Assembly: GCA_034422695.1 (NCBI GenBank)
Contig: DAOUJM010000014.1
Span: forward strand, 303,482 to 367,481
DNA: 64,000 bases
Direction: 5' to 3'
DNA from: Anaerolineae bacterium
GTDB lineage: Bacteria; Chloroflexota; Anaerolineae; Aggregatilineales; Phototrophicaceae
Shown here: piece by piece, positions 7,524 through 56,661 of the stretch
Layout of the letters: each line of letters starts with the position of its first letter
Numbering within the stretch: the stretch's first letter is position 1
Position numbers and translations under genes: made by a program
Notes under the pieces: model-generated
The model's database searches: none
Told to the model about the DNA's origin: nothing
Seen by the model: only the letters and a program-made list of their open reading frames with translations

Positions 7524-7739
7524 GATGACCTCCTCACCTGCGCGCAATCTCCGCTGGCATTGTACAGAAAAAAGTGCGGTCGGCAACAGGCCCGGGTGAC
7601 CGGAAAAGCGCGCGTTAAACTTTCTGTCGCCGGCCTGAAGACAATGCCACACCATGCGTGCTGTCCGCAGGGCGGCATGGCGCCGCTTGCAGTATTCCTG
7701 TACACTGGCGCTGTAAGTCCGGTTCAGGGAGGACTCTCA

Positions 7740-9842: not shown

Positions 9843-9976
9843 GTTGCGCTACAATATCGGCTCGTTTGAGCGCCGGACACTGAGATGACAGGGTCGCCAG
9901 GCAAGCCGGCCAGGATACGGCAAGCCGTCCCTGGTGCGTGCAAGGGAGAGAGCGTCATTAGCGGTTTCACGTCGAC

Positions 9977-10651
9977 ATGACCCGAGCGTCATTACCCCTG
10001 ATTGCCCTGCTGCTTCTGCTCGTTGCCTGTACGCCGGCGACGGTCCTGCGCGATGACAACCTGCTGCGCGATGACAGCCTGCTGACGGGGGAGCCCTGTG
10101 CCGCCCCCTGTTTTCGCGGCATCACCCCTGGAGAGACCTCCTGGGCCGATGCCCTGACCATCATTGAAGACGATCCGGAATTCGAAAACATTCAGACGCA
10201 GGGCCCTGAAGAAGGCGGCACCGTGATCCAGGTCTCCTGGCAACAGGGGCCGGATTCCCCCGACTGCTGCCGGATGGTTACCGAAGACAGCGAAACAGTG
10301 GCGCTGATTTTCCTGCAAACGGCGCCGCTTCACAGCCTGGCGGACCTGATTGAGGCGCATGGCGATCCGGACTGGTTGACTGGCCAGGATTTCCCGGATG
10401 AGCAGGCGGTCATGAGTCTGGTGTATCCGGACGCGTCGATGATCGTCTATGCCTTTGTCGAAGGCGCCGAAGACGGCGTGCTGGATGCGGGCAGCGAACT
10501 CGTGGGAACGCTGTATCTTGCAGCAGAGTCGATGGAACTGCTGCTGCAGACGACCGAACTGCACAAGTGGGAGGGTTACGGCAGCTACCGGAGTTACATG
10601 GAGGGGGAACTGGAGATCACCCCCAGTGTAACCCTGACGCCGACACCCTGA
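9977..10651 (+). CDS. Putative lipoprotein, function unknown
   Basis: N-terminus MTRASLPLIALLLLLVAC is a signal peptide with a lipobox-like LVAC. No other recognisable domain. Confidence 0.55.
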   Translation: MTRASLPLIALLLLLVACTPATVLRDDNLLRDDSLLTGEPCAAPCFRGITPGETSWADALTIIEDDPEFENIQTQGPEEGGTVIQVSWQQGPDSPDCCRMVTEDSETVALIFLQTAPLHSLADLIEAHGDPDWLTGQDFPDEQAVMSLVYPDASMIVYAFVEGAEDGVLDAGSELVGTLYLAAESMELLLQTTELHKWEGYGSYRSYMEGELEITPSVTLTPTP

Positions 10652-18915: not shown

Positions 18916-18939
18916 GTGGCATTCCTGAAAAACGTGGAA

Positions 18940-18957
18940 TACGAACATATGTTCGTA
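18940..18957. promoter_or_regulatory. Perfect 18-bp palindrome TACGAACATATGTTCGTA containing a Cheo-type LexA box (CGAACATATGTTCG)
   Basis: Read directly from the sequence. It lies 25 nt upstream of the gyrA start and 12 nt downstream of a TATAAT on the gyrA strand. Confidence 0.6.
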
Positions 18958-18968
18958 ACAGTAAAACG

Positions 18969-18974
18969 ATTATA
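18969..18974 (-). promoter_or_regulatory. Candidate -10 hexamer TATAAT for gyrA
   Basis: The minus strand reads ...gtcgctgtgTATAATcgttttactgttACGAACATATGTTCGT.... The -35 (TGGTAA) is weak. Confidence 0.4.
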
Positions 18975-19029
18975 CACAGCGACTTGCAGGCTTACCAGGA
19001 TTCTGGCGCGGGCATGATACAATGCGGGC

Positions 19030-20349
19030 ATGAAACACATCTTTCGTGCCCTGTTCTGGCTGACGCTGGCTGCCTGCGTGCCGCAGACGCCCATTCCGGT
19101 TTATGTCACGCCAACCCATGAGCCCCAGCAGCGTCAGGTGGTTGCCCGCGTGCCGGAAGCGACGGATACTCCCCTGCCGGCGCCGACGGACACCGCGACC
19201 CCCGTGTTCACGCCGACGCCGGCGCCGCCCACAGCCACGCCCCTGCCATATCTGAATCCTGAGGACATGGGTACGCAGCTACACACCCTGCTCAGCCAGG
19301 AGGACTTCAGAAGGGTTTCGGAGATCACCGAGCGGCTGGGTCTCGGTTGGGTAAAGGTGCAGATTGACTGGAAGCTGTTACAACCCAACGGCGCAGCAGA
19401 TACCGGTGTGGATTTCAGGAGACAGGAACTCTATCTGGAGGACCTGAAGCGGCGCGGTCACAAGGTCCTCGTGAGCGTGGCGCGCGCGCCGGACTGGGCG
19501 CGCTCCAACCGCGAAGAGGCCGGGCCACCGGATGATCCGCAGGTGCTGGCCGGTTTTCTTGATCTGATGCTGCGGGAGTTCGGCAACGTCATTGACGCCG
19601 TGGAGGTGTGGAACGAGCCCAATCTGCTGCGCGAGTGGAGCGGCCGTCCGATCAGTGGCGGCGAATACATGCGTTACTTCCGGGTTGCCCGCGACGCCAT
19701 CAACAACTATTCGCAGCGCATGAAATCCGACGTGGACGAGCCGCGCCAGACCCCCGTGCTGGTTTTGACGGCCGGGCTGGCGCCTACCGGGAACAGTCCC
19801 TGGTCCGTGGATGACCGGCAGTATTTGCGGCAAATGTACAATGCCGGGCTGGCCAACCTGGACGGGGTTCAGCTCGGCGCCCATCCCTTTGGCTGGGGCA
19901 ACGCGCCGGATTCAGGCTGCTGCGACCCCGTCGCCGACCGGGGCTGGGACGATGCGCCCCAGTTCTTCTTTCTGGATACCTTGCGCAACTATCGGGACAT
20001 CATGCTGGCCTACGGCGACGCTGATGCGCAAATCTGGGTGACCGAGTTCGGCTGGCCCACCTGGGACAGCCTGCCGGGAGACCCGCCAGAGCCTTTCGTG
20101 GGCTACAATGACAAGTGGGCCCAGGCCTTCTATACCTTGCGCGCCTTCCAGATCGGTCAGCAACTGGATTACGTCGGACCGATGATTTTGTGGAACATGA
20201 ATTTCGGCTGGCTGCCGCATCTGATTGACAACCGTGACGAACGGGCCGCCTACAGCCTGCTTGTGCCCCTGGCACAGCAGGAACGACCGCTCTACTGGAT
20301 GATTTACGATTCTGTGCGGCCAGACGTCCAGTTTGGACGCTTCAGCTAG
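19030..20349 (+). CDS. Secreted glycoside hydrolase, clan GH-A (GH5-like) fold
   Basis: Signal peptide, Pro/Thr-rich linker, VEVWNEPN (acid/base-like) and IWVTEFGW (nucleophile-like) motifs. Confidence 0.6.
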   Translation: MKHIFRALFWLTLAACVPQTPIPVYVTPTHEPQQRQVVARVPEATDTPLPAPTDTATPVFTPTPAPPTATPLPYLNPEDMGTQLHTLLSQEDFRRVSEITERLGLGWVKVQIDWKLLQPNGAADTGVDFRRQELYLEDLKRRGHKVLVSVARAPDWARSNREEAGPPDDPQVLAGFLDLMLREFGNVIDAVEVWNEPNLLREWSGRPISGGEYMRYFRVARDAINNYSQRMKSDVDEPRQTPVLVLTAGLAPTGNSPWSVDDRQYLRQMYNAGLANLDGVQLGAHPFGWGNAPDSGCCDPVADRGWDDAPQFFFLDTLRNYRDIMLAYGDADAQIWVTEFGWPTWDSLPGDPPEPFVGYNDKWAQAFYTLRAFQIGQQLDYVGPMILWNMNFGWLPHLIDNRDERAAYSLLVPLAQQERPLYWMIYDSVRPDVQFGRFS

Positions 20350-34976: not shown

Positions 34977-35906
34977 TCAGCCCCCTGCAAGCCAGCGACC
35001 AACTTCAGACAGGACTTCCGTCGCGTTTATCCCGTCGGCATCGTGCCAGCGGATGCCGCCGTCGTGCCCGCGGAACCAGGTGAGCTGGCGCCGAATGAAG
35101 TCGTGCGTTGCATATTTGGCCAACTGGATCGCTTCCTCCAGCGGCAGGCCGTCCAGCAGATGCGCGGCCAGTTGACGATAGCCAAGCCCGCTCATGGACG
35201 GCAGATCGCGTGAATGGCCCGCCTGCAACAGCCCGTTCACCTCGGCGACGAAGCCGGCCTCGATCATGGCGTCCAGTCGCCGGTCCGCCCGCTCGTGCAA
35301 GGCCACCCGCTCCAGACCCAGGCCGATCTGCAAGATGTTCCAGGGAGGAGGCCGGCGCCCCTGCTGTTCGCTGACGGGCCGGCCAGTGAGATGCCAGACC
35401 TCCAGCGAACGCACGATCCGTCGCAGGTTGTTGGGATGGGTCCGGGCCGCCGCCGCCGGGTCAACCTCCGCCAGGCGCCGGTGCAGGGCCCTGCGCCCGT
35501 GGGTCTCTGCGTAACCCTCCAGTTCCCTGCGCAGTGCCTCATCGGGAGGCACGACCGGGATGCGCCAGCCCTCGACGATGGCGCTGAGATACTGCCCGGT
35601 GCCGCCGACCAGCAGCGGCAGCCTTGCCCGTCCCTGGATGTCCGCAATGGCCGCATTGGCCAGGCGCTGAATCTGCGCCAGCCCCGGGTTTTCATCCGGG
35701 TCGGCGATATCGATCAGATGATGCGGCACCAGGGCGCGCTGGCCGGCGTCGGGCTTGGCCGTGCCGATGTCCATGCCGCGGTAAATCTGCCGGCTGTCCG
35801 CGCTGACGATCTCGCCATTGAGGGTCGTCGCCAGCTCGAGTGCCAGCCCGGTCTTGCCGGTGGCGGTGGCGCCCAGGATGACCAGCAGTGGCGGCTTACC
35901 AGTCAA
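34977..35906 (-). CDS. miaA: tRNA dimethylallyltransferase
   Basis: P-loop GATATGKTG and SADSRQIYRGMDIGTAKP. TTG at 35906 lies 5 nt after GGAGGA. The 390-aa ORF-track version overlaps yraN and is rejected. Confidence 0.85.
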   Translation of the reverse strand: MTGKPPLLVILGATATGKTGLALELATTLNGEIVSADSRQIYRGMDIGTAKPDAGQRALVPHHLIDIADPDENPGLAQIQRLANAAIADIQGRARLPLLVGGTGQYLSAIVEGWRIPVVPPDEALRRELEGYAETHGRRALHRRLAEVDPAAAARTHPNNLRRIVRSLEVWHLTGRPVSEQQGRRPPPWNILQIGLGLERVALHERADRRLDAMIEAGFVAEVNGLLQAGHSRDLPSMSGLGYRQLAAHLLDGLPLEEAIQLAKYATHDFIRRQLTWFRGHDGGIRWHDADGINATEVLSEVGRWLAGG

Positions 35907-36273
35907 GGGCGTCCTCCACGTGGTCGATCCCCGTGCTTGCGCCCAGAGCGACGGCGATGACGTCCAGGCGCCAGTCGGCCTCCTCCTGATTGTTTTCCGC
36001 CAGCCAGGACTGGACGGCCGCCACGAGGCGCTGTCGTTTGCGCGTCGTGATGCTGGCGAAGGCGTCCTCCGTCTGCCGCTGACGGCGCGTCCGGACCTCG
36101 ACGAAGACCAGCGTCCCGGCCAGGCGGGCCACGATGTCCAGTTCGCCATGGGCGCAGTGCCAGTTGGCCGCGAGGATCTGATACCCGCGCGCTTCCAGAT
36201 AGCGCGTCGCCAGCATTTCGCCCTGACGGCCGATTCGTCGTGTATGAGTCACTCTGGCCTGTCTCCGCAGCAC
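35896..36273 (-). CDS. yraN: YraN family (UPF0102) endonuclease-like protein
   Basis: GEMLATRYLEARGYQILAANW...ELDIVA...LVFVEVRTR pattern. The exact start is uncertain. Confidence 0.75.
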   Translation of the reverse strand: MLRRQARVTHTRRIGRQGEMLATRYLEARGYQILAANWHCAHGELDIVARLAGTLVFVEVRTRRQRQTEDAFASITTRKRQRLVAAVQSWLAENNQEEADWRLDVIAVALGASTGIDHVEDALDW

Positions 36274-36363
36274 GCCCTGACGGCAGCAGCGGGATTGTAA
36301 TCAGACCCTGGCCAGGCTACCATGCGCGGCGGCCAGGGACGGTAATGGAGCAGGGGGCGGGGC

Positions 36364-38469
<2,106 letters not shown>

Positions 38470-38490
38470 ACCGGCGGGCAGAGCGAATGC

Positions 38491-38829
38491 TCAGGGGCGG
38501 CTCATGCCAGAGTCGCCCTTTTGGTTGGCCGGGTCGTCACCTCTCAATACCGGACGGAACTTGTAGCCGTAGACAATTGAGCCGCTTTCCCCCTCGCTGT
38601 ACAGGCGGCGCGTGACCATTTCGACGCGAGCGCCGATCTGCGGCGGGTCTTCCAGGTCGGTCAGTTGCGCGGTGACGAGCGGGCCTTCGTCCAGGCGAAT
38701 CAGGGCCAGGGCGTAGGGCGCCTGTTCCTCAAAGCCGGCGGGTGGGGCGGTCAGAATGGTGAAACTGTAGATTTCGCCGCTGCCGGCGAACTGGAACTGC
38801 TCTGCATCAAGGGCCGGATCGGTTCTCAC
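38491..38829 (-). CDS. DUF35 OB-fold domain protein (partner of the archaeal-type thiolase/HMG-CoA synthase complex), lacking its N-terminal zinc ribbon in this frame
   Basis: [10 protein letters not shown]...[20 protein letters not shown]...GARVEMV pattern. GTG start at 38829. Confidence 0.6.
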
Positions 38830-38836
38830 CAGGGTG

Positions 38837-38992
38837 TCAGACCCTGGCCGGCGCCGGCGCGGTCAATGCCGGTTGAGGACGCACAACGGTGACCAGCGGC
38901 CGTTGCTGCAGGCTCAGTTTGCCATCCTGGCGGCGAAACCCCTGCAGGCGATAGCGCTGTGCCCTGAGACGCCAGTTACGTGATATCTGCAT
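38837..38992 (-). pseudogene. Possible detached or frameshifted N-terminal segment of the DUF35 protein (zinc-ribbon-like region without cysteines)
   Basis: MQISRNWRLRAQRYRLQGFRRQDGKLSLQQRPLV resembles the usual DUF35 N-terminus (xRYWRxxxQRYRLxGxxCxxCGxxxFPPRxxC). Every Cys position is substituted. It is in a different frame from the 38491-38829 ORF. Confidence 0.35.
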
Positions 38993-39049
38993 CGCTGCCG
39001 TTCCATCCCTGATGCGAAGCGTCGTTGCAATCATGATAGCGGCGGGGGG

Positions 39050-39150
39050 CTGTCAATTGCTGTCAGCCGGCGCCGAAACACTGTCGAATGCTGTCAACCC
39101 TGGCGGTTGCGGGGCGAAAAAACTTTCAATAACTGTCAATTGCCCTGACA
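39050..39150. promoter_or_regulatory. Three copies of a 17-bp motif (CTGTCAATTGCTGTCAG 39050-39066; CTGTCGAATGCTGTCAA 39081-39097; variant CTGTCAATTGCCCTGACA 39133-39150) upstream of the DUF35 gene
   Basis: Read directly from the intergenic region between the Gfo/Idh/MocA stop and the DUF35 start. A fourth copy lies at 44113-44129. Confidence 0.5.
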
Positions 39151-39176
39151 AGGGAGGCTGCATAATGCGCGAAATG

Positions 39177-40223
39177 CTACGGCGTGGTGAACCCGACCCG
39201 GCGGCCGCTGCGGGCCGATTCGTAGGCGCCCAGTATCATCTCGATGCAGACGCGACCATCGGCGGCGCTTGCCAGTGGCCCGCGCTTTCCCTGCAAATAG
39301 TCGATCAGTGGGCGCGGCACGTCGCGGATGCGGTCACCATGGGGCCGCAGGGGGAAATCGAAGACCTCCCATGCGCCCGTCGCCTGGCGGTACAGCCTGA
39401 GGGCGACCGCGCCGGGCAAGAGCGGCACGTTGGCTGAGGGAACATCGCCGTGGTTCTGGATGATGCTGCCCGCATCGCCCAGGATTTCGGTGGTGTTTTC
39501 CGCCGCCAGGGTGGTGGAACTGTTGAGCAGGACGCCGATTGCACCGCCCGCAAAGCGGTAAATGGCGACGCCGTTGTCGTCCGGGGCGACGTCGGTGACG
39601 ATGTTGTCGATCTCGGCCACGACGCTGACCGGCCGGCCCAGCATCCAGTAGAGGAAGTCGGCGGCGTGGGAGGCGTCGTCCATGAACATGCCCATGTTTT
39701 GCAGCGGGTCGATGTGCCAGTTGCCGGGTCGGGCGAAGTCCGGGTTGAGCAGCATGGGAATGGCGTGGCGACGGCGCAACATGAAGACCTTGCCAACGGC
39801 GCCCTCGTCCAGCAGGGCTTTCATGCGCTGGTTGACCGGGTCGGCGCGCATCTGGTAGCAGATGCTGAACTTCACGCCGGCCGCGTCTACGGCGGCGGCG
39901 ATGGCATCGCAGTCCGCAAGACTGAGGGCCATCGGCTTTTGCAGCAGGACGTGCAGCCCGGCGCGGGCCGCGGCGATGCAGTGATCGGCATGCCGGTTGG
40001 TGGGGCTGGCCACAAACACGGCGTCCAGCTCCGGCCGCGCCAGCAGATCAGCCAGACGCGGGACGAACTCAAGGCCGAACTGTTCGCAGAATTGCGCGCC
40101 GCGCGCCGGATCATCGTCCCAGGCCGCAACAATCTGTGCGTCGTCGAATTCACGCATGACGTCCGCATAGACCCGCACGTGGCCGTGGGCGAAGCTGATG
40201 ATGCCGAGTTTCAGGGTGCGCAT
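39177..40223 (-). CDS. Gfo/Idh/MocA family NAD(P)-dependent oxidoreductase
   Basis: N-terminal Rossmann LKLGIISFAHGH and a QKP (EKP-type) motif. Confidence 0.8.
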   Translation of the reverse strand: MRTLKLGIISFAHGHVRVYADVMREFDDAQIVAAWDDDPARGAQFCEQFGLEFVPRLADLLARPELDAVFVASPTNRHADHCIAAARAGLHVLLQKPMALSLADCDAIAAAVDAAGVKFSICYQMRADPVNQRMKALLDEGAVGKVFMLRRRHAIPMLLNPDFARPGNWHIDPLQNMGMFMDDASHAADFLYWMLGRPVSVVAEIDNIVTDVAPDDNGVAIYRFAGGAIGVLLNSSTTLAAENTTEILGDAGSIIQNHGDVPSANVPLLPGAVALRLYRQATGAWEVFDFPLRPHGDRIRDVPRPLIDYLQGKRGPLASAADGRVCIEMILGAYESARSGRRVGFTTP

Positions 40224-40226
40224 GGT

Positions 40227-41270
40227 TCAGGCCCTCAACTTGCCGCGAAAACGGCAGTAGGTCGCATAGTCGATTTCGCTGCGCCGGGCGATGTAGTCGC
40301 GCGTGGCCGGCGCCCTGCCGCGGACGTCCCGGACCCGTTCCGTGACCTCCAGGTCGAAGGCGTCCGAGCCGGCGCCGCTGCCGTAGCTGACCATCAGGAT
40401 GCGGTCGCCGGGGTCGGCGATGTCCAGCACGGCGGTCAGCCCCAGCATGCAGGAGCCGGAATAGGTGTTGCCGATATCGCCGGCCAGCAGTCCCGCGCTG
40501 ACCTGGTCGGCGCCGAACCCCAGGGCGCGGGCCGCCCGTTGCGGGAACTTGACGTTGGGCTGGTGAAAGACCGCCCAGGCGTAATCGGCAGCCGTTGAAC
40601 GCATTTCTTCCATGAGGGCGCGCCCGGCGCTGATGCTGTGATTGAAGTAGGCCGGTTCGCCGGTGAAGCGGTCGCCGTGGCTGGGGTAGGGCTGACCTTC
40701 GCGACGCCAGAAATCGGGCGTGTCGGTGACGAAGCTGGCGCTGCCCAGAAAGCGGGCGCAGGCTTCCTGCGCCGGGCCCAGCAGGAAGGCCGCGCCGCCG
40801 GACGCAGCGGTGTATTCCAGGTCGTCACCGGGCCGGCCCTGGGCGGTGTCCATGCCGATGGCCAGGGTATAGCGTCCCATGCCGCTGCCGATGATGCCGA
40901 TGGAGGCCTGCACGGCTTCCGTGCCGGCCTTGCAGGCGAATTCAAGGTCGGCGGCCATGACGGCGGGCGTCGCGCCCACGCTTTCGGCGACGACGGTGCT
41001 GCTGGGCTTGACGGCGTAGGGGTGACTTTCGCTGCCGACCCAGACGGCGCGGACGTCGGCCGGATCCACCCTGGCGCGGGCGATGGCGTTGCGCGCGGCC
41101 TCGATGGACATGGTGATGACGTCCTCGTCCAGGCCGGCGACGGCCTTTTCGCGCACCGGGCTGCCGCCCCTGCCCTGCGTCCAGATGCGCGCTATTTCGC
41201 TGCCGGGCAGGCGGTAACGCGGGACGTAGGCGCCATAGCCGACGATGCCGACCTGGCTCACCGGTGACAT
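40227..41270 (-). CDS. Hydroxymethylglutaryl-CoA synthase, archaeal type
   Basis: [16 protein letters not shown]-terminus, [11 protein letters not shown] and catalytic Cys context [12 protein letters not shown] at 41270 has an AGGAG RBS. An alternative start exists at 41318. Confidence 0.8.
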
Positions 41271-41318
41271 GGCAACTCCTTCGACATGGATGCCGCTTTT
41301 GGTCACGGTACGCTCCAT

Positions 41319-42870
41319 ATGTAGTTATCTGTTTGCAATTACTTGAGTTGGAAAATATCCATGGTTGAAGGTGCTTGTCCCCCGCTCCGGGGAACAAATG
41401 GAGGAAGATTTATTTTCTTCCCGGCAAGCAGATCTTCAACACTTACACCTTGTATTACAGGATATGTGCCGAGACTGTCACTAAATATCTCTCGATTCCT
41501 GTTGTTTTCTACTGTTTGCATGAAACGTCCGAAACAAACCAGAATGCCAGCTTTTACTCCATGCTTTTTTACAGTGTCATAGAGTCTTCCGACTGCATCT
41601 GGAGTCACCGAACCACTTTTTACCTGCACAATTGCGTACTCTGGTTTGGAAACCTCTCCAATGTTTATGGGATAGAATTCAATGACACCATCAACTCCTG
41701 CATCCGGGCCTCTTTCTCCGGGGTCACGGTACATCCCGTGAGCTCCAATGAAACCACAGGCCCATTTTTCAAACTCAAATCTGTCCCGGTTTGCCAGTTT
41801 CAAAGCATCTTCAACTGACGAGGGAGTACCGAATACCTGAATATGTGAATTATCCAGTGTGGGAATCCACGAAAGTATGCGCTCACGAACAAGACCTGTG
41901 GCAAATGAAGAAACGTCAATCCCTATCCAGCGGCGTTTTAGGTATTCGGCCGCATGCAGGGTCGTGCCACAGCCACAAAATGGGTCCAGCACCAAGTCTC
42001 CTTCATTCGAAGACGCAAGAATGATATGTCGTAATAGTGAGAGAGGTTTTTGCGTCGGGTATCCAAGTCGTTCTCTGGCATTTGGACGGATTGGTGGCAA
42101 CACAATCCAGTCCTGAGGCAACTTTCCACGCTCATCAAGCTTTACTTCCTCGAACTGAGAAGCATGTGCTGCATACTCCTCTCTTCCTTGAGATGCTTCT
42201 GAGTATGGTTGTCGCACATCATCAGGGTTAAACGTCCATGCATCACTTTTTGAATAAAACAAAAGGACATCATGTGTGCGGGCATAATATGACTTTGTAT
42301 TCCTTGGCCACGAGTAGCACCAAACCAGTTCGTTATGAAAAAATCGGTAACCGAAAATGCCGTCCATCAGCGACTTCAAGTAATGACTTGCTGTTGGGTC
42401 GCAGTGAAGATAGATGCTCCCGGAGTCTTTAAGTACCCGTTTCATCGGCTCCAATCGAGCAGCCATATTTACAAGATAGGCACCAAGATTGTTTTTGCTC
42501 GCGCGTCCACCAGATATCTCCAACGAGTACTCAACAAGATTTCCCAGATGTCTGGATTGAGGCCTTCTTTTAAATCTTTCAAGCAAAGTCTCTTCTTTGT
42601 CACCCCACTCCCAGGTATCCTTAAACGCCTCTACTGGTCTAAGTGTTTTGTCCTTTCCCTTGAAGGGAAGGTTGTAAGTGCTGTTTGAGTTGAATGGTGG
42701 ATCCAAATAAACCAGATCTACAGATCCATCCGGCATAATGTCTGGGTCGCTTAGAATATTCAGGCAGTCGTCAGCATAGAGAATGCGATTCATTCCAACT
42801 CCAGGGAAATTGATTTGACCAACTCTATAGCATATTGCATTCCAATGTTGCCATTGGCAACCATCTTTTC
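41319..42870. other. AT-rich compositional island (putative horizontally acquired DNA), one gene long
   Basis: There is an abrupt drop in GC. My hand count for 42790-42869 is 31 G+C of 80, and the rest looks low-40s % by eye, against mid-60s % flanks. I saw no integrase, tRNA or terminal repeats. Confidence 0.75.
41339..42793 (-). CDS. Fusion protein: beta-class N6-adenine/N4-cytosine DNA methyltransferase (aa 1 to ~335) plus C-terminal Mrr-like PD-(D/E)xK restriction endonuclease domain (aa ~336-484)
   Basis: Motif IV DPPF (aa 31-34) precedes motif I DPFCGCGTT, with YPTQKP in between. The C-terminal FEFEKW...DAGVDGVIEF...AIVQVKSG matches the Mrr_cat pattern (D...QxK). Confidence 0.8.
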   Translation of the reverse strand: MNRILYADDCLNILSDPDIMPDGSVDLVYLDPPFNSNSTYNLPFKGKDKTLRPVEAFKDTWEWGDKEETLLERFKRRPQSRHLGNLVEYSLEISGGRASKNNLGAYLVNMAARLEPMKRVLKDSGSIYLHCDPTASHYLKSLMDGIFGYRFFHNELVWCYSWPRNTKSYYARTHDVLLFYSKSDAWTFNPDDVRQPYSEASQGREEYAAHASQFEEVKLDERGKLPQDWIVLPPIRPNARERLGYPTQKPLSLLRHIILASSNEGDLVLDPFCGCGTTLHAAEYLKRRWIGIDVSSFATGLVRERILSWIPTLDNSHIQVFGTPSSVEDALKLANRDRFEFEKWACGFIGAHGMYRDPGERGPDAGVDGVIEFYPINIGEVSKPEYAIVQVKSGSVTPDAVGRLYDTVKKHGVKAGILVCFGRFMQTVENNRNREIFSDSLGTYPVIQGVSVEDLLAGKKINLPPFVPRSGGQAPSTMDIFQLK

Positions 42871-44088
42871 GGCGATTTCGCTCGCCCGTTCCGCCGGCGC
42901 GCCGGCGGCCAGCGCCAGTTGACGCGCGTGCAGGCTCATGTGGCCGCGTTGAATGCCTTCCGCGGCCAGGGCGCGCAGGGCGGCGAAATTCTGCGCCAGA
43001 CCGACGGCAGCCATGACTTCGGCCAGTTCCCGCGCCTGCGTGACCTTCATGATTTTCAGGGCGACGGCGGCCAGCGGGTGCACCCGGGTGGCGCCGCCAA
43101 CAGTGCCCACCGCCAGCGGCAACTCGAGCGAACCATGCAGGACGTTGTCGCCGTCCAGGCGCCAGCGCGACAGGCTGGCATAGCGGCCGTCGCGCGCGGC
43201 CCAGGCGTGGGCGCCGGCCTCAAGGGCGCGCCAGTCGTTGCCGGTGGCGACGGCCACGGCGTCGATGCCGTTCATGATGCCCTTGTTGTGCGTCGCCGCG
43301 CGCTGCGGATCAATCTCCGCCAGGGCCGTCGCCGCCACGATGCGCTGCGCGACTTCCAGGCCGGCCCGGCCCCCGTCATCCAGCTCACTGGCCGGCAAGT
43401 GACAGTTGGCGCGGGCCAGACGACGGTTCGCCAGGTTGCTGAGGATGCGCAGGTTGGCGCGGCCACCACTGAGCGCTTCCAGACGCGGCGCCAGTCCTTC
43501 GCAGATGCTGTTGACCAGGTTGGCACCCATGGCGTCGCGACAATCGATGACGATATTCACGACCAACATGGGGCCGACGGCGCTGTGCCGTAGCGGGCGC
43601 AACTCCAGCTCCCGCGCGCCGCCACCGCGCGCCACGAGGCTGCCGGCGAATCGGTTGGCCAGCTCCAGCAATTCATGCCGCGCCCGGTGAATGGCGGCCC
43701 GGGCGGTTTCGATTTCCGGTACGTTGATCAACTGCACCTGGCCGGTCATCAGGGGTTCATCGCTGCCGGCGTAAAAGCCGCCACTGCGGCGAAACAGGCG
43801 CGCGGCATTTCCCAGGGCCGCCACGACCGAGGGCTCCTCGATGGCCAGCGGCACCAGCAACTCGCGCCCGTTGACGATGAAATTCGGCGCAACGCCGAGG
43901 GGCAGGCCGTAGACGCCGATTGCGTTTTCGATCATCTGGCCGGCCAGACGCGGGTCCAGGCCGCTGCCCCCGGCCAGCAACGCCTGTTCGGCTTCGGTCA
44001 GTCCACTGAGTTGCGCCACTCGCGCCAGGCGCTCCTGCGGGGTGAGGCGATGAAGGCCGGGCAGGCGCGACGTGTATACTTCGTTCAT
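42790..44088 (-). CDS. mvaA: Hydroxymethylglutaryl-CoA reductase, class II
   Basis: ENAIGVYGLPLGVAPNF, LAIEEPSVVAA and GIQRGHMSLHARQ motifs. 432 aa. Confidence 0.9.
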   Translation of the reverse strand: MNEVYTSRLPGLHRLTPQERLARVAQLSGLTEAEQALLAGGSGLDPRLAGQMIENAIGVYGLPLGVAPNFIVNGRELLVPLAIEEPSVVAALGNAARLFRRSGGFYAGSDEPLMTGQVQLINVPEIETARAAIHRARHELLELANRFAGSLVARGGGARELELRPLRHSAVGPMLVVNIVIDCRDAMGANLVNSICEGLAPRLEALSGGRANLRILSNLANRRLARANCHLPASELDDGGRAGLEVAQRIVAATALAEIDPQRAATHNKGIMNGIDAVAVATGNDWRALEAGAHAWAARDGRYASLSRWRLDGDNVLHGSLELPLAVGTVGGATRVHPLAAVALKIMKVTQARELAEVMAAVGLAQNFAALRALAAEGIQRGHMSLHARQLALAAGAPAERASEIAEKMVANGNIGMQYAIELVKSISLELE

Positions 44089-44112
44089 GGGCCAGAATGT
44101 AGCAGGCGGGCG

Positions 44113-44129
44113 CTGTCATTTGCTATCAG
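44113..44129. promoter_or_regulatory. Fourth copy of the 17-bp motif (CTGTCATTTGCTATCAG), 25 nt upstream of the HMG-CoA reductase start
   Basis: Matches the first 39050-39150 copy (39050-39066) at 15 of 17 positions, and the second at 13 of 17. Lies in the divergent promoter region. Confidence 0.45.
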
Positions 44130-44185
44130 ATTGGTAGCCGCGCGATGTTGACTTCCTGTCAGGAGAGGCCGTCCAGAGATCAACC

Positions 44186-44974
44186 ATGAAAGCTGTTCAG
44201 CGATGCCTCTTGCTGTTGACTCTGTTGTGGCTGTTGCTCTGGCCGCATTCCACTGCAGCGCAGGATGGCACCCTGCGCCGCATCCGGGTGCCGATTCTGA
44301 TGTATCACTACGTTGGGCCCTTGCCCCGGGACGCCGACCGGCTGCGCATCGGCCTGACGGTGCGGCCGGAGGCCTTTCGCGACCAGCTGGCTTGGCTGCG
44401 CGGGGGTGGATACAGCAGCATCTCCTTCGACCAGCTCCACGCCGCCCTGCAGGATGGCGCCGCCTTGCCGGCGAAACCCGTCATTTTGAGCTTTGACGAC
44501 GGTTACCACGATCACTTCACCGTCGTCATGCCGCTGCTGCTGGAAGCGGGTTTTACGGGGACCTTTTTTGTCATCAGCGAAAGGGTGGACGCCCGGGACC
44601 CAAATCATCTGAACCGCGAGCAGGTCGCCATCATGGCGGCTGAAGGGATGACCATTGAATCCCACAGTCGGTCGCACCGGGACCTCGCCGGTCGTGACCG
44701 TGATTTACTGGTCTTCGAGCTGCTGGGCAGTCGGGAAACCCTGGGGGCCTACAGCGGCAGGGCGCCCAAAACGGTCGCCTGGCCCTTTGGCAGCCATGAC
44801 GGGCGGGCGCGCCAGGTCGCCAGGGAAGCCGGCTATCTGATGGCCGTGAGCACGCGCGCCGGCATACTGCACAGCAACACAGAACTCCACGATCTTGCGC
44901 GCATTCGCATCAACCGGGACCTGTCCACGCCCGGCTTCGCAAGTCTGGTCAGGGGTGACTGGTTCGACGGGTAG
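44186..44974 (+). CDS. Secreted polysaccharide deacetylase (NodB homology domain)
   Basis: Signal peptide, ILMYHYV and LSFDDGY motifs, ESHSRSH. Confidence 0.8.
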   Translation: MKAVQRCLLLLTLLWLLLWPHSTAAQDGTLRRIRVPILMYHYVGPLPRDADRLRIGLTVRPEAFRDQLAWLRGGGYSSISFDQLHAALQDGAALPAKPVILSFDDGYHDHFTVVMPLLLEAGFTGTFFVISERVDARDPNHLNREQVAIMAAEGMTIESHSRSHRDLAGRDRDLLVFELLGSRETLGAYSGRAPKTVAWPFGSHDGRARQVAREAGYLMAVSTRAGILHSNTELHDLARIRINRDLSTPGFASLVRGDWFDG

Positions 44975-45005
44975 CAGCCCCTGCAGCCGGCCTGGCCTGG
45001 CAAAG

Positions 45006-45269
45006 TCAGTCAGGCAGTATTCTGGTATCCAGAAAGTGGTCCAGCCAGACCATGAACAGCAGGGCCAGGGGCAGGGCGGTGGTGATGAAATAAATCGTGC
45101 CGTATTCACCGATGCCGATGGCTTCCGAGTTGACCGGCGTAATGATCGGGGGCAGGAAGATGGACGGTAGCATTGCGAAGCCGACCGTGATAATCAGGAA
45201 GGCGCCGAGCAGCCCGAGAGCAGTGGAGACTACCCAGACAATAATGCGTTTAATGGTCAACGAGGACAT
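45006..45269 (-). CDS. Small membrane protein (two hydrophobic segments), function unknown
   Basis: ORF of 87 aa with two clear hydrophobic stretches. No recognisable domain. Confidence 0.45.
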   Translation of the reverse strand: MSSLTIKRIIVWVVSTALGLLGAFLIITVGFAMLPSIFLPPIITPVNSEAIGIGEYGTIYFITTALPLALLFMVWLDHFLDTRILPD

Positions 45270-45463
45270 GCAGAGCCCCTGCTGGCATCACGTTTTACGG
45301 TGGGCGCAGTGTAGCGCGTAATCTCGCGGCGGACAAGGCGCAGTTGACACGCCGATACCACCGGTGGCAATCAGCCGCATAATTGAGCATAATGGCAAAC
45401 AGTTGGTGCTGTGGGTCTTTCCGTTCCATCAGGGGCCTGATTGCCCGGAGCAGGAGTCTGGTC

Positions 45464-46681
45464 ATGGCTGATCTTTACGAGAAGATCGCGACCGACAGTG
45501 ACATGCGGCGGGTGCGCGAGGCGCAATCCATCGGGATCTACCCGTACTTCCGCGCGCTGAGCCAGTCCGAGGGCGTGACCGCCACCATAGAGGGCCGGGA
45601 CGTGGTCATGCTGGGCTCAAACAACTATCTGGGCCTGACGACGGACCAGCGCGTGCGCCAGGCGATGATGGATGCCGTCGAGCGCTACGGCACCAGCGTG
45701 ACCGGTTCGCGCTTTCTGAACGGCACGCTGGAACTGCATCTGGAACTGGACCGGCGCCTGGCGGAGTTCGTCGGGAAAGAGGCGGCGCTTGTCTTTCCGA
45801 CGGGTTACCAGACCAACGTTGGCACGATATCGGCGATGGTGGGCAAGGGCGACTTCGTCATCGTGGACAAGGATGATCATGCCAGCATTGTCGATGGTTG
45901 CATCATGGCGCGCGGAGAGATGAAACGCTTTCGCCACAATGACGTGAGCAGCCTGGATTCCGTGCTGGCGCGTTTGCCCGCGGATGCCGGCAAACTGGTG
46001 GTGGTCGATGGCGTCTACAGCATGATGGGGGACCTGGCGCCCCTGCCGGCACTGGTGGAAATCTGCAAGCGCCATGGCGCAAGAATCATGGTCGACGATG
46101 CCCATGGCATAGGAGTCACCGGGGAAGGACGTGGCACCTCGGCCCACTTCGGCCTCACCGACGAGGTCGACCTGATTATGGGCACTTTCAGCAAGAGCTT
46201 CGCCTCCATTGGCGGTTTCATCGCCGGCAGCGCCGAGGCCGTGCATTACATCCAGCATCGCGCGCGCGCGCTGATATTCTCCGCTTCCCTGCCGGCGCCC
46301 AACGTGGCGACCGTCCTGCGCGCGCTCGATATCATGGAAAGCGAGCCGCAGCACGTCCGCAATCTGTGGCAGAACGCGGAATACATGCGTCATCGGCTGA
46401 ATGCGCTGGGCTACAACACCGGCGCCAGCAACACGCCGATTATCCCGGTCATTCTGGGCGACGACTTTCGTGTCGCGCTGGCGTGGCACGCCCTGATCGA
46501 GGCCGGCGTGTACACGAACCCCGTGGTGCCGCCGGGCACACCGCCAGGATCAGGCCTGCTGCGTACCAGCTACACGGCGACCCACCGCCGGGAGCATCTG
46601 GACCGGGCGGTGACAGCCTTTCGTGAAGTGGGGGAACGACTGGATTTCATTCCCGTCGCCGCGGAGGCGCCCGCAAACTAG
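45464..46681 (+). CDS. Alpha-oxoamine synthase family PLP enzyme (8-amino-7-oxononanoate synthase / serine palmitoyltransferase-like)
   Basis: GSNNYLGL, DDAHG and TFSKSF (PLP Lys) motifs. YPYFR N-terminal motif. ATG at 45464 follows GGAGCAGGAG. Confidence 0.8.
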   Translation: MADLYEKIATDSDMRRVREAQSIGIYPYFRALSQSEGVTATIEGRDVVMLGSNNYLGLTTDQRVRQAMMDAVERYGTSVTGSRFLNGTLELHLELDRRLAEFVGKEAALVFPTGYQTNVGTISAMVGKGDFVIVDKDDHASIVDGCIMARGEMKRFRHNDVSSLDSVLARLPADAGKLVVVDGVYSMMGDLAPLPALVEICKRHGARIMVDDAHGIGVTGEGRGTSAHFGLTDEVDLIMGTFSKSFASIGGFIAGSAEAVHYIQHRARALIFSASLPAPNVATVLRALDIMESEPQHVRNLWQNAEYMRHRLNALGYNTGASNTPIIPVILGDDFRVALAWHALIEAGVYTNPVVPPGTPPGSGLLRTSYTATHRREHLDRAVTAFREVGERLDFIPVAAEAPAN

Positions 46682-46730
46682 CCGGCATGCCGTCCTGCCG
46701 CGGCTGAAGCGGAACAACTGGCCTGGCGAA

Positions 46731-48026
46731 TTAACCCTTCTTCATTGCACGCTTCAGGGCCCTTGCGGCCTTGCGCCTGAAGCGCTCCACCTTGACGACC
46801 TTGCGTTTGTGGCGCGCTTCCTCGGCGGCGAAGGCCAGCAGGTGACTTTCCAGCGATTCACCGGCGGTGGGCAAATCCCTTTCAGATTCGCCGCGGGCTG
46901 CGCGCAGAAAGGCGGCCAACATGCCGTAGTCACCCCCGCCGTGGCCGCTGGCTGCATCCTGCACTTCAACCTGTTCGGTCAGGCCGCTGCGATGTTCACG
47001 AACAGTGATCACGTTGCCGCCGGCGCCGCCCATTCTGGCCTGCAGGGTACCAAGGGTGCCGTCGTAACGCATGGTGCGGCCTTCCTCGAAGCCGTGACCC
47101 TGCATGATAAGCGTGACGGTCGTGCCGTCTTCCGCCTCCAGCGCCACGGTCTGGTGATCGACGACCGTGTTGTCGCAATGCCAGACACAGCGTCCGTAGG
47201 GGCTGGTCGTGGCCAGCAACTCAAGGCGCCCGGCGGCGTCGGTATTGAAGGCGACCGCGTTTAGCAGGTAGCTGTCGCCGTCTTTGGCGTAAAAGCGGGG
47301 CGCATAATACTTGCAATCGTCGGCATGCGGGCAGCCGTCGGTGCAGCGCAGGGGCGCATCCGGCGGCGCATGTTCGGGTCGGAAGGCGGTCAGGCTGCCG
47401 AAGGAACTGACGTGGGTGAAGCGCTGCTCCAGCAGCCAGCCCAGAATGTCCAGGTCATGGCAGCACTTGGCCAGCAGCATGGGCGCGGAACTGGCTTCGG
47501 CGCGCCAGTTGCCGCGCACGAAGCTGTGCGCCATGTGCCAGTAGATCAGGTTTTCACGATGATCGACGTTGACGATGCGCCCCAGACGACCGGAACGCAA
47601 AATGTCGCGCAAGGTGCGGAAGAAGGCCGTGTAACGCAACACGTGACAGGTCGCCAACAGGCGTCCGCTCGCTTCAGCAGCCTGCACCAGGCGCAGGTTG
47701 TCGAGCAGGGTATGCGCCATGGGCTTTTCCAGCAGGATGTCGTAACCGGCCGCCAGGGCCGCCAGGGTGGAGGCGGTATGCATCTGGTCCTGGGTGCAGT
47801 TGAACAGCAGGTCCGCCAGTTGACCCTGCGCCAGCAGCGCTTCCCAGGACTCAAACTGACGCCCGGGCGGGATGCCATGTTCGGCGGCGAAACGCTCACG
47901 GCGCGCGGCCTGCGGCTCGGCGACGGCGACGAAGTCAAGTTCCTCAGGGTGGGCCAGGGCATAGGGTCCGTAGGCCATCAGTCCGCGACTGCCGGCGCCC
48001 AGCAACACGGCGCTCTTCTTCTGCAT
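46731..48026 (-). CDS. Gfo/Idh/MocA family oxidoreductase (long form with basic C-terminal tail)
   Basis: LLGAGSRG Rossmann and EKP motif (LLEKPMA). Start moved to the ATG at 48026. Confidence 0.75.
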   Translation of the reverse strand: MQKKSAVLLGAGSRGLMAYGPYALAHPEELDFVAVAEPQAARRERFAAEHGIPPGRQFESWEALLAQGQLADLLFNCTQDQMHTASTLAALAAGYDILLEKPMAHTLLDNLRLVQAAEASGRLLATCHVLRYTAFFRTLRDILRSGRLGRIVNVDHRENLIYWHMAHSFVRGNWRAEASSAPMLLAKCCHDLDILGWLLEQRFTHVSSFGSLTAFRPEHAPPDAPLRCTDGCPHADDCKYYAPRFYAKDGDSYLLNAVAFNTDAAGRLELLATTSPYGRCVWHCDNTVVDHQTVALEAEDGTTVTLIMQGHGFEEGRTMRYDGTLGTLQARMGGAGGNVITVREHRSGLTEQVEVQDAASGHGGGDYGMLAAFLRAARGESERDLPTAGESLESHLLAFAAEEARHKRKVVKVERFRRKAARALKRAMKKG

Positions 48027-55516: not shown

Positions 55517-56377
55517 TCAGGCGCTCAGGCGGTTTTCCGGCATGTTTTCCAGTCGGGTGAGCCAGTAGTGCACGTCGAAGTCCTCGTCACCGGTCAGGAA
55601 ACGCCACAGCAGGGTGCGGTTGACGATTTCCAGGCGACCGTCGCCGGCCTCGAACCAGGGCTCCAGTCTGGCCAGAATGGCCTGCACGTCATCGCGTTTT
55701 TCGCCGGCGAAGATGGGCTGATGGGCGCTGGTGTCCTCATCGAGGTCGTCGGTGTTCCACAGGCGCAGCTGGCGCACGGTGGGGTTGAGGCGGATCTTGT
55801 ACATGTACCGCATGCGGTCGGTCCTGTTCTGGCGGCCACAGTGCCAGATGCCGTGATGCAGGACCAGGATGCTGCCCGCCTCGCAGACCATGGGGATCTG
55901 CCCCAGGAAATTCTGGTAACGGGAGACCTCCGCTTCGTTGATGCGGCGCAAGTGGCTGCCCGGCAGCAGCAGGGTGCCGCCCATTTCCAGGGGTACGTCG
56001 TGCGGAAAGTACATCAACTGGACGTCAAAGTGCAGGCGCGTGTCGATGATCGAATCGCCATGCAGGCCCTGGGCCTTGCCCTCGTTGGGCAGGCGTTTGT
56101 GAATGGCGTGATGATCGAAGAGCGGGTTTTGGCCGACGAGGCTGTCGAGGATGCCCTGAATCTGTGGCAGGCGCAGCATGGCGCCGATGGGCGAGGGCGC
56201 CGGATAGCACTCGGCAAAAGGCGTGCCGGCCGGGTAGCTGTTGATGCCGCCCGCCTCGAATTCGGCCATGACGGCCTGGTTAATGTCATCGGGGACAATC
56301 TCGTCAAAGCGCAAAAACCCGCGCGCCACGAATTCCGCCATCTGGTGCGAATTGAGCAGATGCTGTTTGTCGCTCAT
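55517..56377 (-). CDS. Phytanoyl-CoA dioxygenase (PhyH) family Fe(II)/2-oxoglutarate oxygenase
   Basis: LHGDS (HxD) and HHGIWHCG motifs. About 286 aa. Confidence 0.65.
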   Translation of the reverse strand: MSDKQHLLNSHQMAEFVARGFLRFDEIVPDDINQAVMAEFEAGGINSYPAGTPFAECYPAPSPIGAMLRLPQIQGILDSLVGQNPLFDHHAIHKRLPNEGKAQGLHGDSIIDTRLHFDVQLMYFPHDVPLEMGGTLLLPGSHLRRINEAEVSRYQNFLGQIPMVCEAGSILVLHHGIWHCGRQNRTDRMRYMYKIRLNPTVRQLRLWNTDDLDEDTSAHQPIFAGEKRDDVQAILARLEPWFEAGDGRLEIVNRTLLWRFLTGDEDFDVHYWLTRLENMPENRLSA

Positions 56378-56661
56378 GTCTCGATCGTCTCCAGCTTTTC
56401 GAAAATGTATTCGTTCTTCTTGAACGAGGTGGTGTATTCCATCCCCGGGTAGGGCGGGATGAGTTGCGGAAACTGGATGACGCGCCAGCCGTCCAGCAGG
56501 GCTTCCATGCCGGTGGCGTAGGGCCGTTCGTCGCTGTCACCGGTGGTGTGATGCTCGCGGCCGGTGCCGTCGTACATGGTCCAGCCCTTGACGTCGCTAT
56601 CAAGGGCCGAGGTACCGAGGTAGAGAATCAGGATTTTTTGCCGTTGTTGCGCCGCTGCCAT
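56374..56661 (-). CDS. Hypothetical 95-aa protein, 4-nt overlap with the downstream PhyH gene
   Basis: The ORF sits at the head of the operon and its stop overlaps the PhyH ATG. No recognisable domain. Confidence 0.45.
   Translation of the reverse strand: MAAAQQRQKILILYLGTSALDSDVKGWTMYDGTGREHHTTGDSDERPYATGMEALLDGWRVIQFPQLIPPYPGMEYTTSFKKNEYIFEKLETIET

Follow-up and report, generated by a model that had tools for sequence, protein, structure and literature searches.

A low-GC methyltransferase-nuclease cassette at the HMGR-HMGCS junction of a Chloroflexota mevalonate operon

The locus and its single gene

We analyzed a 64,000-nucleotide stretch of the genome of an Anaerolineae bacterium (Chloroflexota; assembly GCA_034422695.1, contig DAOUJM010000014.1, positions 303,482 to 367,481; hereafter the window, numbered from its first base), in which a gene for a predicted DNA methyltransferase (MTase) fused to an Mrr-type nuclease domain lies between two genes of the mevalonate pathway, HMGR (HMG-CoA reductase) and HMGCS (HMG-CoA synthase). 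The gene sits in an island of low G+C content (GC). Positions 41319 to 42870 hold 703 G+C in 1,552 bases (0.453), and in windows of 300 bp the GC falls from 0.70-0.72 to 0.42-0.51 between approximately 41250 and 42900. The remaining 1,552-bp windows of the 64-kb stretch have a mean GC of 0.647 (standard deviation 0.020, minimum 0.604), which places the island at z = -9.7, and no second region of this length resembles it. At the upstream edge, 31 of the 80 bases at 42790 to 42869 are G+C, compared to a GC of 0.750 in the neighboring 42871 to 42950. The single credible open reading frame (ORF) in the island, 41339 to 42793 on the minus strand, encodes 484 amino acids, and its GC at third codon positions (GC3) is 0.41 compared to 0.81-0.87 in the flanking genes. 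A preliminary description, made from the letters of the window, had reported the collapse in GC, a hand count of 31 of 80, exactly one gene in the island and the two mevalonate genes on one strand; all of this is borne out, the count to the base. The sole other dips below 0.52 in the window (200-bp windows) are short ones at 18821 to 19120 and 56281 to 56480, with segment means of 0.537 and 0.515.

The flanking genes are read from the minus strand as well. HMGR (42790 to 44088), a class II HMG-CoA reductase gene, lies upstream of the methyltransferase-nuclease ORF; its native part, 42871 to 44088, matches PF00368 (E = 2.8e-107) and TIGR00532 (396 bits) and is approximately 98% identical to a cassette-free locus, L251. 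Downstream, HMGCS (40227 to 41270 in the gene call for the window's locus, L001) encodes an archaeal-type HMG-CoA synthase (TIGR00748, 526 bits). Both TIGR scores exceed the curated cut-offs. The HMGCS start is at 41270, and a further in-frame ATG upstream, at 41318, falls within the cassette described below. Next in the tightly packed operon is a gene for a GFO/Idh/MocA oxidoreductase (39177 to 40223, minus strand, Pfam), whose synteny is kept in all relatives.

To define the boundaries we used two cassette-free loci, L251 and L252, found by a search with the HMGR of the window. The flanks of L251 are 98.2% and 97.3% identical to those of the window, which on sequence grounds makes it a member of the same species; L252, from the same project, is 90.6% and 92.9% identical. 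HMGR directly abuts or overlaps HMGCS in both. Aligned to L251, the window is perfectly identical up to 42871 ('...GAAATCGCC') and fully identical back from 41273 ('GCCATGTCACCGG'). The segment between these points, 41274 to 42870 on the minus strand (1,597 bp, GC 0.455), replaces approximately 137 bp of native junction, comprising the HMGR tail and HMGCS start, in both empty alleles. This swap is the sole difference between the window strain and its approximately 98% identical conspecific. Over the first 166 to 600 bp outside the breakpoints there are just 0 to 2 mismatches per window, which places the crossovers in highly conserved blocks right beside the junction. L251 is a long-read contig at 3x coverage with split gene calls at 6559 to 7619 and 8315 to 10422 (the GFO oxidoreductase and an H+-PPase, two pieces each); most likely these are sequencing frameshifts, which also shorten its HMGR call to 413 amino acids.

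The cassette carries more than its ORF. It includes an HMGR C-terminus of 26 codons plus stop (42790 to 42870, minus strand, 81 nt, 39% GC), which reads EKMVANGNIGMQYAIELVKSISLELE before the stop in the window compared to the native RKLVATGDIRLQRARELVNALNRSDNKMKHSEANANE before the stop in L251 and L252; the two tails are homologous, and the AT-rich one is common to the alleles L003 and L004, which we group with that of the window as type A below. At 42790 to 42802 (minus strand) lies a predicted translational coupling site, consisting of a Shine-Dalgarno motif GGAG (42799 to 42802) 5 nt upstream of an ATGA (42790 to 42793) in which the MTase start overlaps the HMGR stop. At the other end, a cassette-specific spacer or leader precedes HMGCS (41271 to 41338, minus strand, delimited by alignment with the empty alleles); it is 56% GC and holds a new Shine-Dalgarno motif, AAGGAG (41276 to 41281), 5 nt ahead of the ATG at 41270. 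Given these cassette-supplied parts, the gene can be read as part of the mevalonate operon, presumably cotranscribed with it and translationally coupled to HMGR. In the cassette-free loci (L251:5380-5490 and L252:7325-7332), the HMGR stop and HMGCS start overlap by 8 nt (ATGAGTGA), from which it follows that the two genes would natively be translationally coupled and that the cassette breaks this coupling and re-creates it differently.

Searches for signs of mobility were negative. No tRNA was found within the 64-kb window, and there is no integrase, transposase, phage or mobility gene among the neighbors within 10 kb on either side of the methyltransferase-nuclease gene; no Rfam family was found at the locus, and promoter and terminator motifs there are not above chance. 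Convincing terminal repeats are likewise absent from the locus. As the preliminary description had it, the locus thus shows neither the recombinase, nor the tRNA target, nor the terminal repeats by which an integrative mobile element or genomic island is recognized. One imperfect 12-nt inverted repeat, unexceptional in itself, frames the ORF exactly (41342 to 41353 and 42793 to 42804, 11 of 12 positions), joining the Shine-Dalgarno and start region to the last codons, and L004 shows one compensatory change in it. We considered that the repeat might form a long-range RNA pair sequestering the Shine-Dalgarno motif and rejected this, since in type A the duplex energy reaches no higher than the top 5-13% of windows and in types B and C it does not stand out. 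The repeat is probably due to chance.

The N-terminal part of the protein matches PF01555 (N6_N4_Mtase, E = 4e-47) over amino acids 25 to 296 (41906 to 42721, minus strand), with 161.4 bits against a cut-off of 26.7. The catalytic motif IV, DPPF (amino acids 31 to 34, 42692 to 42703), is invariant in 50 family members and precedes the SAM-binding motif I, DPFCGCGTT (amino acids 270 to 278, 41960 to 41986), which is the circularly permuted order of the beta class. In motif I, D270, G274, C275, G276 and T277 are invariant among the 50 homologues, and P271, F272 and C273 nearly so. Between the two motifs lies a hypervariable segment, a putative target-recognition domain delimited by comparison of alleles (amino acids 186 to 240, 42074 to 42238). 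The C-terminal part contains a PD-(D/E)xK nuclease-like Mrr_cat domain (PF04471, amino acids 337 to 427, 41513 to 41785; E = 6.7e-7, 29.9 bits against a cut-off of 21). Its residues E342 (41768 to 41770), D364, D368 (41690 to 41692) and Q390-V391-K392 (41618 to 41626) are invariant in the 50 homologues, in which the mean column identity is 50%; this places the domain under constraint and makes it probably catalytic. In an AlphaFold model built on the 50 homologues (pLDDT 81), the nuclease-domain core has the order alpha-alpha-beta-beta-alpha-beta-alpha, with helices at 327 to 349, strands at 369 to 373 and 385 to 391, a helix at 398 to 411 and a strand at 415 to 420. By profile, motif and model, the gene encodes a beta-class DNA methyltransferase with a C-terminal Mrr-type PD-(D/E)xK domain whose E...D...QxK residues are intact. 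The preliminary description had spoken of a solitary defence-type gene, a label that fits this predicted pairing of MTase and nuclease with no mobility genes nearby.

With the full-length model as query, the best Foldseek matches were M.RsrI, M.BceJIV, CcrM and MboIIA (E = 1e-18 to 1e-15; target-normalized TM-score, TMt, 0.56-0.82), all of them in the MTase domain and all of them beta-class N6-adenine enzymes. Together with the DPPF motif, these nearest structures suggest N6-adenine as the methylated base. PADLOC returned only generic Type II/III MTase models, and the CcrM equivalog of NCBIfam scored 79 bits, far below its cut-off of 830. The separate restriction endonuclease gene of a two-gene Type II restriction-modification (RM) system was not found next to the ORF, where the neighbors are HMGR and HMGCS. 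No neighbor gene is conserved among 161 family loci (the largest neighbor cluster comprises 7 of 205 proteins), which argues that the gene is a stand-alone unit; its absence from the conspecific indicates that it is dispensable. The product would then be a self-contained modification or modification-plus-restriction enzyme and, if the nuclease is active on unmodified DNA, a single-chain modification/restriction enzyme. Two points count against this functional assignment: methylated base, target motif and nuclease activity are all deduced from motifs, and an Mrr-type domain could serve as a DNA-binding module only.

The full-length fusion defines a large family, with more than 8,000 database matches, of which the best 120 listed all have E <= 4e-156. 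The family is frequent in viral contigs (317 IMG/VR matches) and also occurs in Streptomyces and Marinitoga phages and on plasmids. Every phage, viral-contig and plasmid copy is at most 44% identical to the product of the window, and a mobile-element reservoir was rejected for this reason. In Streptomyces phage Werner (L250:1971-5617), a temperate phage, gp48 adjoins the serine integrase in a region flanked by genes for replication and for nucleotide metabolism; here too no partner nuclease gene accompanies it. Four long contigs of 1.6, 5.06, 3.37 and 3.15 Mb each carry two diverged members (P0014/P0021, P0040/P0048, P0075/P0109 and P0032/P0116), which indicates that some genomes keep paralogous copies. 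The literature searched contained no published description of the MTase-Mrr fusion architecture and nothing relevant to the sample accessions; a paper on Haloferax HVO_A0006 describes a different, Type IIG-derived fragment.

Junction alleles and their exchange

We scanned one genome per species for HMGCS, obtaining 80 Chloroflexota loci labelled Anaerolineae, Phototrophicaceae or Aggregatilineales. In these reference loci HMGR lies directly upstream of HMGCS, its stop typically 1-20 nt from the HMGCS start, and the methyltransferase-nuclease gene is absent from all 80. With L251 and L252 empty as well, the synteny comparison identifies the cassette as an insertion relative to the ancestral state, as the preliminary description had supposed.

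The gene occurs at the same junction in four further loci, L003, L004/5, L006/7 and L088. In all five carriers the order is HMGR, gene, HMGCS, with the ATGA overlap. These are also its closest homologues: protein identities are 94, 85, 64 and 63%, the next best match being at most 58%, and the four genomes are syntenic with the window at 64-67% GC. The alleles fall into three types, A (window, L003, L004/5), B (L006/7) and C (L088), with 64-65% amino acid identity between types. In a neighbor-joining tree of 50 family members the three types form one clade with 100% bootstrap support, and this monophyly points to one original insertion. L089, a 57% identical relative, has an unrelated genomic context. 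In the type-C locus L088, a short direct repeat occurs before the HMGR stop (GAGCAGGAATGA, 7985 to 8004) and at the end of the MTase ORF (GAGCAGTGA, 9460 to 9476); the repeat could be left over from the original insertion or could be fortuitous.

Between the window and its 94% identical allele, dN/dS is 0.046 at a dS of 0.70, so the gene, judged from these substitutions, is under strong purifying selection. Divergence is concentrated in one segment. Residues 186 to 240 are 22-29% identical between types, with indels, and 80% identical within type A; the other main segments are 61-80% identical between types and the C-terminal tail 54-56%. Because this segment lies where beta-class enzymes hold the target-recognition domain, types A, B and C probably differ in target specificity, each presumably methylating a type-specific motif, putatively at N6-adenine.

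The phylogeny of the hosts does not follow that of the alleles. In a tree of seven concatenated flanking proteins (2,529 columns), the carrier L006 (type B) is sister to the empty L032 (99.5% support), and is nested among empties, with L009 (100%) and then L008 (100%) joining the pair; the window (type A) is sister to the empty L252 (100%), and L088 (type C) pairs with L004 (type A) at 77.5%, outside the other two groups. Thus L001 and L006 are each sister to a non-carrier at 99.5-100% support, and L001 and L004 are grouped in 0% of host bootstraps whereas their MTases are grouped at 100%. L008, L009 and L032 have empty junctions that share homology with each other and with those of the outgroups; independent deletions do not account for them. 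In L006 the replacement extends over the entire junction and takes in the N-terminal leader of HMGCS. The incongruent trees and the homologous empty junctions together establish, at the level of sequence, that the junction alleles A, B, C and empty have been exchanged by homologous replacement across the clade and within species. The cassette is the minority state, given that the protein database holds 22 HMGR clusters at least 72% identical to that of the window compared to 5 clusters of A/B/C-clade MTases. Mismatches between L001 and L251 in the flanks (approximately 35400 to 47900, cassette excluded) are clustered (between 0 and 16 in 200 bp), the pattern that recombination tracts would leave.

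L003 stands apart. At L003:2115-2160 (NGUY21-1_SAMN17524316-scaffold_48395), a 10-N gap is followed by adapter-like sequence (CTTCCGATCT), the last approximately 17 nt of a type-B MTase and then HMGCS. This type-B tail indicates that A and B alleles coexist in that sample and that the scaffold may be chimeric, perhaps in its left contig as well. We therefore set aside the mosaic of an L009-like HMGR and a type-A MTase in L003 as decisive proof of recombination; the argument is carried by L006 and L001 against their empty sisters.

The same scaffold lends some color to the idea that the island itself is an artefact, an AT-rich contig chimerically joined into a GC-rich scaffold, since the window too comes from a metagenome scaffold. 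We regard this as vanishingly improbable. The join recurs in an independent Logan assembly, which answers the concern about a chimera in the preliminary description, and a further four datasets have the same architecture; one of them is a 2.95-Mb long-read contig and another an NCBI metagenome-assembled genome reproduced by a second assembly. In addition, the reading frames are continuous across both junctions.

The HMGR-HMGCS junction also receives other genes. Among approximately 78 other genomes, 12 carry different cargo there. Toxin-antitoxin genes (an MNT+HepT pair) occur, as do AadA-like nucleotidyltransferases, accompanied in one case by a DDE transposase. A TIR-FGE-sulfatase protein is found together with a Uma2 nuclease, and further cargo includes two kinds of membrane protein, one PMT-like and one conserved and 113-131 amino acids long, and two ORFs without a Pfam match. 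Occupied junctions lie at L070:4634-5324, L079:269-2445, L081:5227-5964, L057:2284-5736, L056:4192-5928, L030:5330-5914 and L039:780-1982, and in the gaps of L073, L075, L076, L080 and L082. Conserved flanks, empty and occupied alleles among close relatives and different cargo elsewhere are the marks of a hotspot, and from these sequences the junction is a recurrent landing site for accessory genes in Anaerolineae-type Chloroflexota. The preliminary description had called a solitary defence-type gene at this site unusual; the position inside the operon stands, and the claim is weakened by the other cargo.

We consider it likely that the window carries a single-gene, old defence-type cassette that is swapped between related Chloroflexota through recombination in the flanking genes. 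In this scheme the ancestral and conspecific state is one in which HMGR and HMGCS abut or overlap, and the cassette takes the place of that junction, supplying the AT-rich HMGR C-terminus, the ATGA predicted to couple the MTase to HMGR translation and the new Shine-Dalgarno motif of HMGCS. One insertion in a genus- to family-level clade would have given rise to at least three allele types; strong purifying selection acts on the gene, and the types have diverged chiefly in the putative target-recognition segment. Occupied and empty alleles displace one another through homologous recombination in the conserved blocks of HMGR and HMGCS beside the junction, and specificity variants would be kept polymorphic, as is usual for defence genes, presumably by frequency-dependent defence benefits. 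The homology-facilitated replacement offered in the preliminary description as one of two possibilities corresponds to what we find, namely a swapped HMGR tail and junction and incongruent cassette and host trees. Two points weigh against the scheme: five carrier lineages are known, one of them (L003) on a possibly chimeric scaffold, and the choice between gain and loss within the species is made by parsimony.

A related mechanism would be homing-like spread, in which the nuclease cuts unmethylated, cassette-free DNA, at or near the empty junction or genome-wide, and repair from a cassette-bearing template copies the gene in. If true, this would explain the same junction in non-sister hosts, the crossovers at the cassette edges and the persistence of the gene inside a biosynthetic operon. 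We found no specific support for it, and other family members sit in unrelated contexts; we hold it to be highly improbable.

Low GC content of the cassette

The preliminary description implicitly read the low GC as a sign of recent foreign acquisition. A recent transfer from a distant AT-rich donor, with donor GC not yet ameliorated, would account for a GC of 0.45 against 0.65 with abrupt boundaries and for the missing gene in the approximately 98% identical conspecific; the family is common in phages and on plasmids, and a few members elsewhere deviate by -0.15 to -0.24 in GC from their hosts. The closest relatives, however, are found only at this junction in the same high-GC clade, with no viral or plasmid copy above 44% identity, and the homologous HMGR tail and HMGCS leader in the cassette imply that the donor had the same locus. 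The type-A copies are also synonymously saturated yet all low in GC: L001 and L004 (GC3 0.41 and 0.50) differ with a synonymous proportion (pS) of 0.77, and all A and B copies have a GC3 of 0.41-0.50 in hosts with gene GC3 of 0.79-0.90. Low GC kept despite saturated synonymous divergence is not the signature of a recent arrival from such a donor. Relatives of similar genomic GC carry this gene too, equally low in GC and in an identical position, which the preliminary description had itself named as an observation that would count against recent acquisition. The resident alleles form a single clade under purifying selection, unameliorated at saturation, and we abandon the earlier reading as very unlikely.

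Substitution patterns offer one account of why the low GC persists. At third positions, changes polarized on the L001 and L003 branches number 39 AT-to-GC compared to 45 GC-to-AT, whereas the host regime predicts 87% AT-to-GC (p = 3e-19) and an equilibrium of 0.60 is also rejected (p = 8e-4), although with approximately 80-110 changes and a nearly saturated outgroup the test is weaker than these p-values suggest. Recent substitutions between the conspecifics L001 and L251 in approximately 11 kb of core flanks, polarized with L252, show a twofold skew, with 50 and 61 GC-to-AT compared to 25 and 30 AT-to-GC changes; equal per-site rates in the two directions imply an equilibrium GC of approximately 0.50, compared to the actual 0.66. 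The GC of the cassette, 0.46, is close to this implied value, and nearby intergenic DNA has a GC of 0.62. In other genomes the GC of family members follows that of the host (mean difference -0.04, or -0.07 where the host exceeds 60% GC), as judged from distant members (34-50% identity) among the matches listed in a metagenome scan.

We tentatively suggest, at somewhat less than even odds in our own judgment, that the low GC represents the AT-biased mutational equilibrium of the host itself. A minority, usually hemizygous allele would seldom meet a homologous partner and would thereby escape whatever restores GC in core DNA, be it biased gene conversion or selection. Such an escape would agree with the higher AT content of accessory compared to core genomes (PMC5303225). 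Several observations weigh against this equilibrium. The GC boundaries are abrupt, within approximately 30 bp, the HMGCS leader of the cassette is itself 56% GC, and allele C, at the same site, has a GC3 of 0.75; the low GC is therefore not a requirement, nor does it extend evenly along the haplotype. A reservoir lineage of lower GC and with similar flanks, as yet unsampled, is a possible source, and selection for low expression of a potentially toxic nuclease a possible cause.

Under the first of these, types A and B would have had a long history in a sister lineage, unsampled and of lower GC, with the same junction, and would have entered several high-GC species as recent imports through recombination in the blocks of highest conservation. 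The AT-rich homologous HMGR tail does resemble HMGR coding sequence evolved under AT pressure, each carrier lineage has a cassette-free sister, so that all sampled carriers could be recent recipients, and many Anaerolineae with the same synteny have a GC of 45-55%. We nevertheless consider this origin unlikely. At least four independent imports would be needed. The gene is present at 0 of the 80 reference loci, no A/B/C-clade member was found in a low-GC context in a search of 5.8 billion proteins, and no lineage has a matching HMGR tail, for which 81 loci yielded no donor. Moreover, the low-GC relatives, at 54-58% (HMGR) and approximately 75% (HMGCS) protein identity, were judged too diverged for homologous exchange.

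The second would have low GC held by selection on the gene, through rare AT-ending codons or unstructured mRNA that hold a potentially toxic nuclease at a low level coupled to HMGR, or through AT-rich DNA that serves silencing or regulation. The abrupt edges coincide with the ORF plus the 81 nt upstream, the zone of translation initiation, while the HMGCS leader is GC-richer; the GC3 of the gene lies below the intergenic GC, and the protein is under strong purifying selection. Yet allele C functions at the same site with its high GC3, most family members in high-GC hosts have a GC of 0.55-0.63, and promoter, terminator and RNA-structure signals are not above chance. On balance we find this explanation unlikely.

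Comparison with known systems

The findings have several implications. A biosynthetic operon with predicted translational coupling can accommodate a defence-type gene that rewrites the end of the preceding enzyme and the ribosome-binding site of the following one. For annotation, low GC by itself is no evidence of recent foreign origin. If the equilibrium reading of the composition holds, hemizygous cassettes of this sort could act as built-in neutral controls in high-GC bacteria, helping to tell mutation bias apart from the effects of biased gene conversion or selection. The fusion family is a candidate group of single-chain modification/restriction enzymes, with a predicted architecture unlike that of characterized Type IIG enzymes.

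Variable RM and defence cassettes at conserved hotspots, exchanged by recombination in their flanks, are known from Helicobacter, Neisseria and the defence hotspots of enterobacteria. The cassette described here resembles them in its conserved core flanks, its empty and alternative alleles, its incongruent trees, the variation in its specificity region and the other cargo at the site elsewhere. It differs in that the junction is 1-20 nt long or overlapping and lies inside a translationally coupled biosynthetic operon, in that it consists of one gene only, and in that it rewrites the C-terminus of the upstream enzyme and the downstream ribosome-binding site.

At the protein level, M.RsrI, M.BceJIV, CcrM and M.MboIIA are the best PDB matches in sequence and structure and have in common with it the fold and the DPP(Y/F) and FxGxG motifs, with motif IV ahead of motif I; identity to them is 20-25%, and the protein of the window has an additional C-terminal Mrr-type domain of approximately 150 amino acids. 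In Type IIG/IIC enzymes such as MmeI, BpuSI and Eco57I the nuclease is N-terminal, the MTase belongs to the gamma class and the specificity domain is C-terminal. Like these, the 484-amino-acid protein combines a PD-(D/E)xK nuclease domain and a methyltransferase in one chain and needs no partner gene; unlike these, it has an N-terminal beta-class MTase, an internal variable segment (amino acids 186 to 240) and a C-terminal predicted nuclease. With Mrr, a Type IV modification-dependent enzyme, it shares an Mrr_cat match above the gathering score and the conserved D...QxK, whereas Pfam detected no N-terminal DNA-recognition domain of Mrr and the domain is here fused to a methyltransferase. Because of this fusion, an enzyme that cleaved the DNA which its own MTase domain methylates would work against itself.

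The phage members of PHROG 67, such as gp48 of Streptomyces phage Werner and the methyltransferase of Marinitoga phage MPV1, have the same full-length architecture (96% query cover, 36-40% identity) and are solitary genes beside the integrase in temperate phages; the gene of the window differs from this phage cargo in that it lies in the chromosome and has neither phage nor mobility genes in the 10 kb to each side. Set beside these systems, the cassette is an ordinary kind of element whose low GC has persisted unusually long, and it is the gene-rewriting junction inside an operon, together with that persistence, that gives it a modest additional interest.

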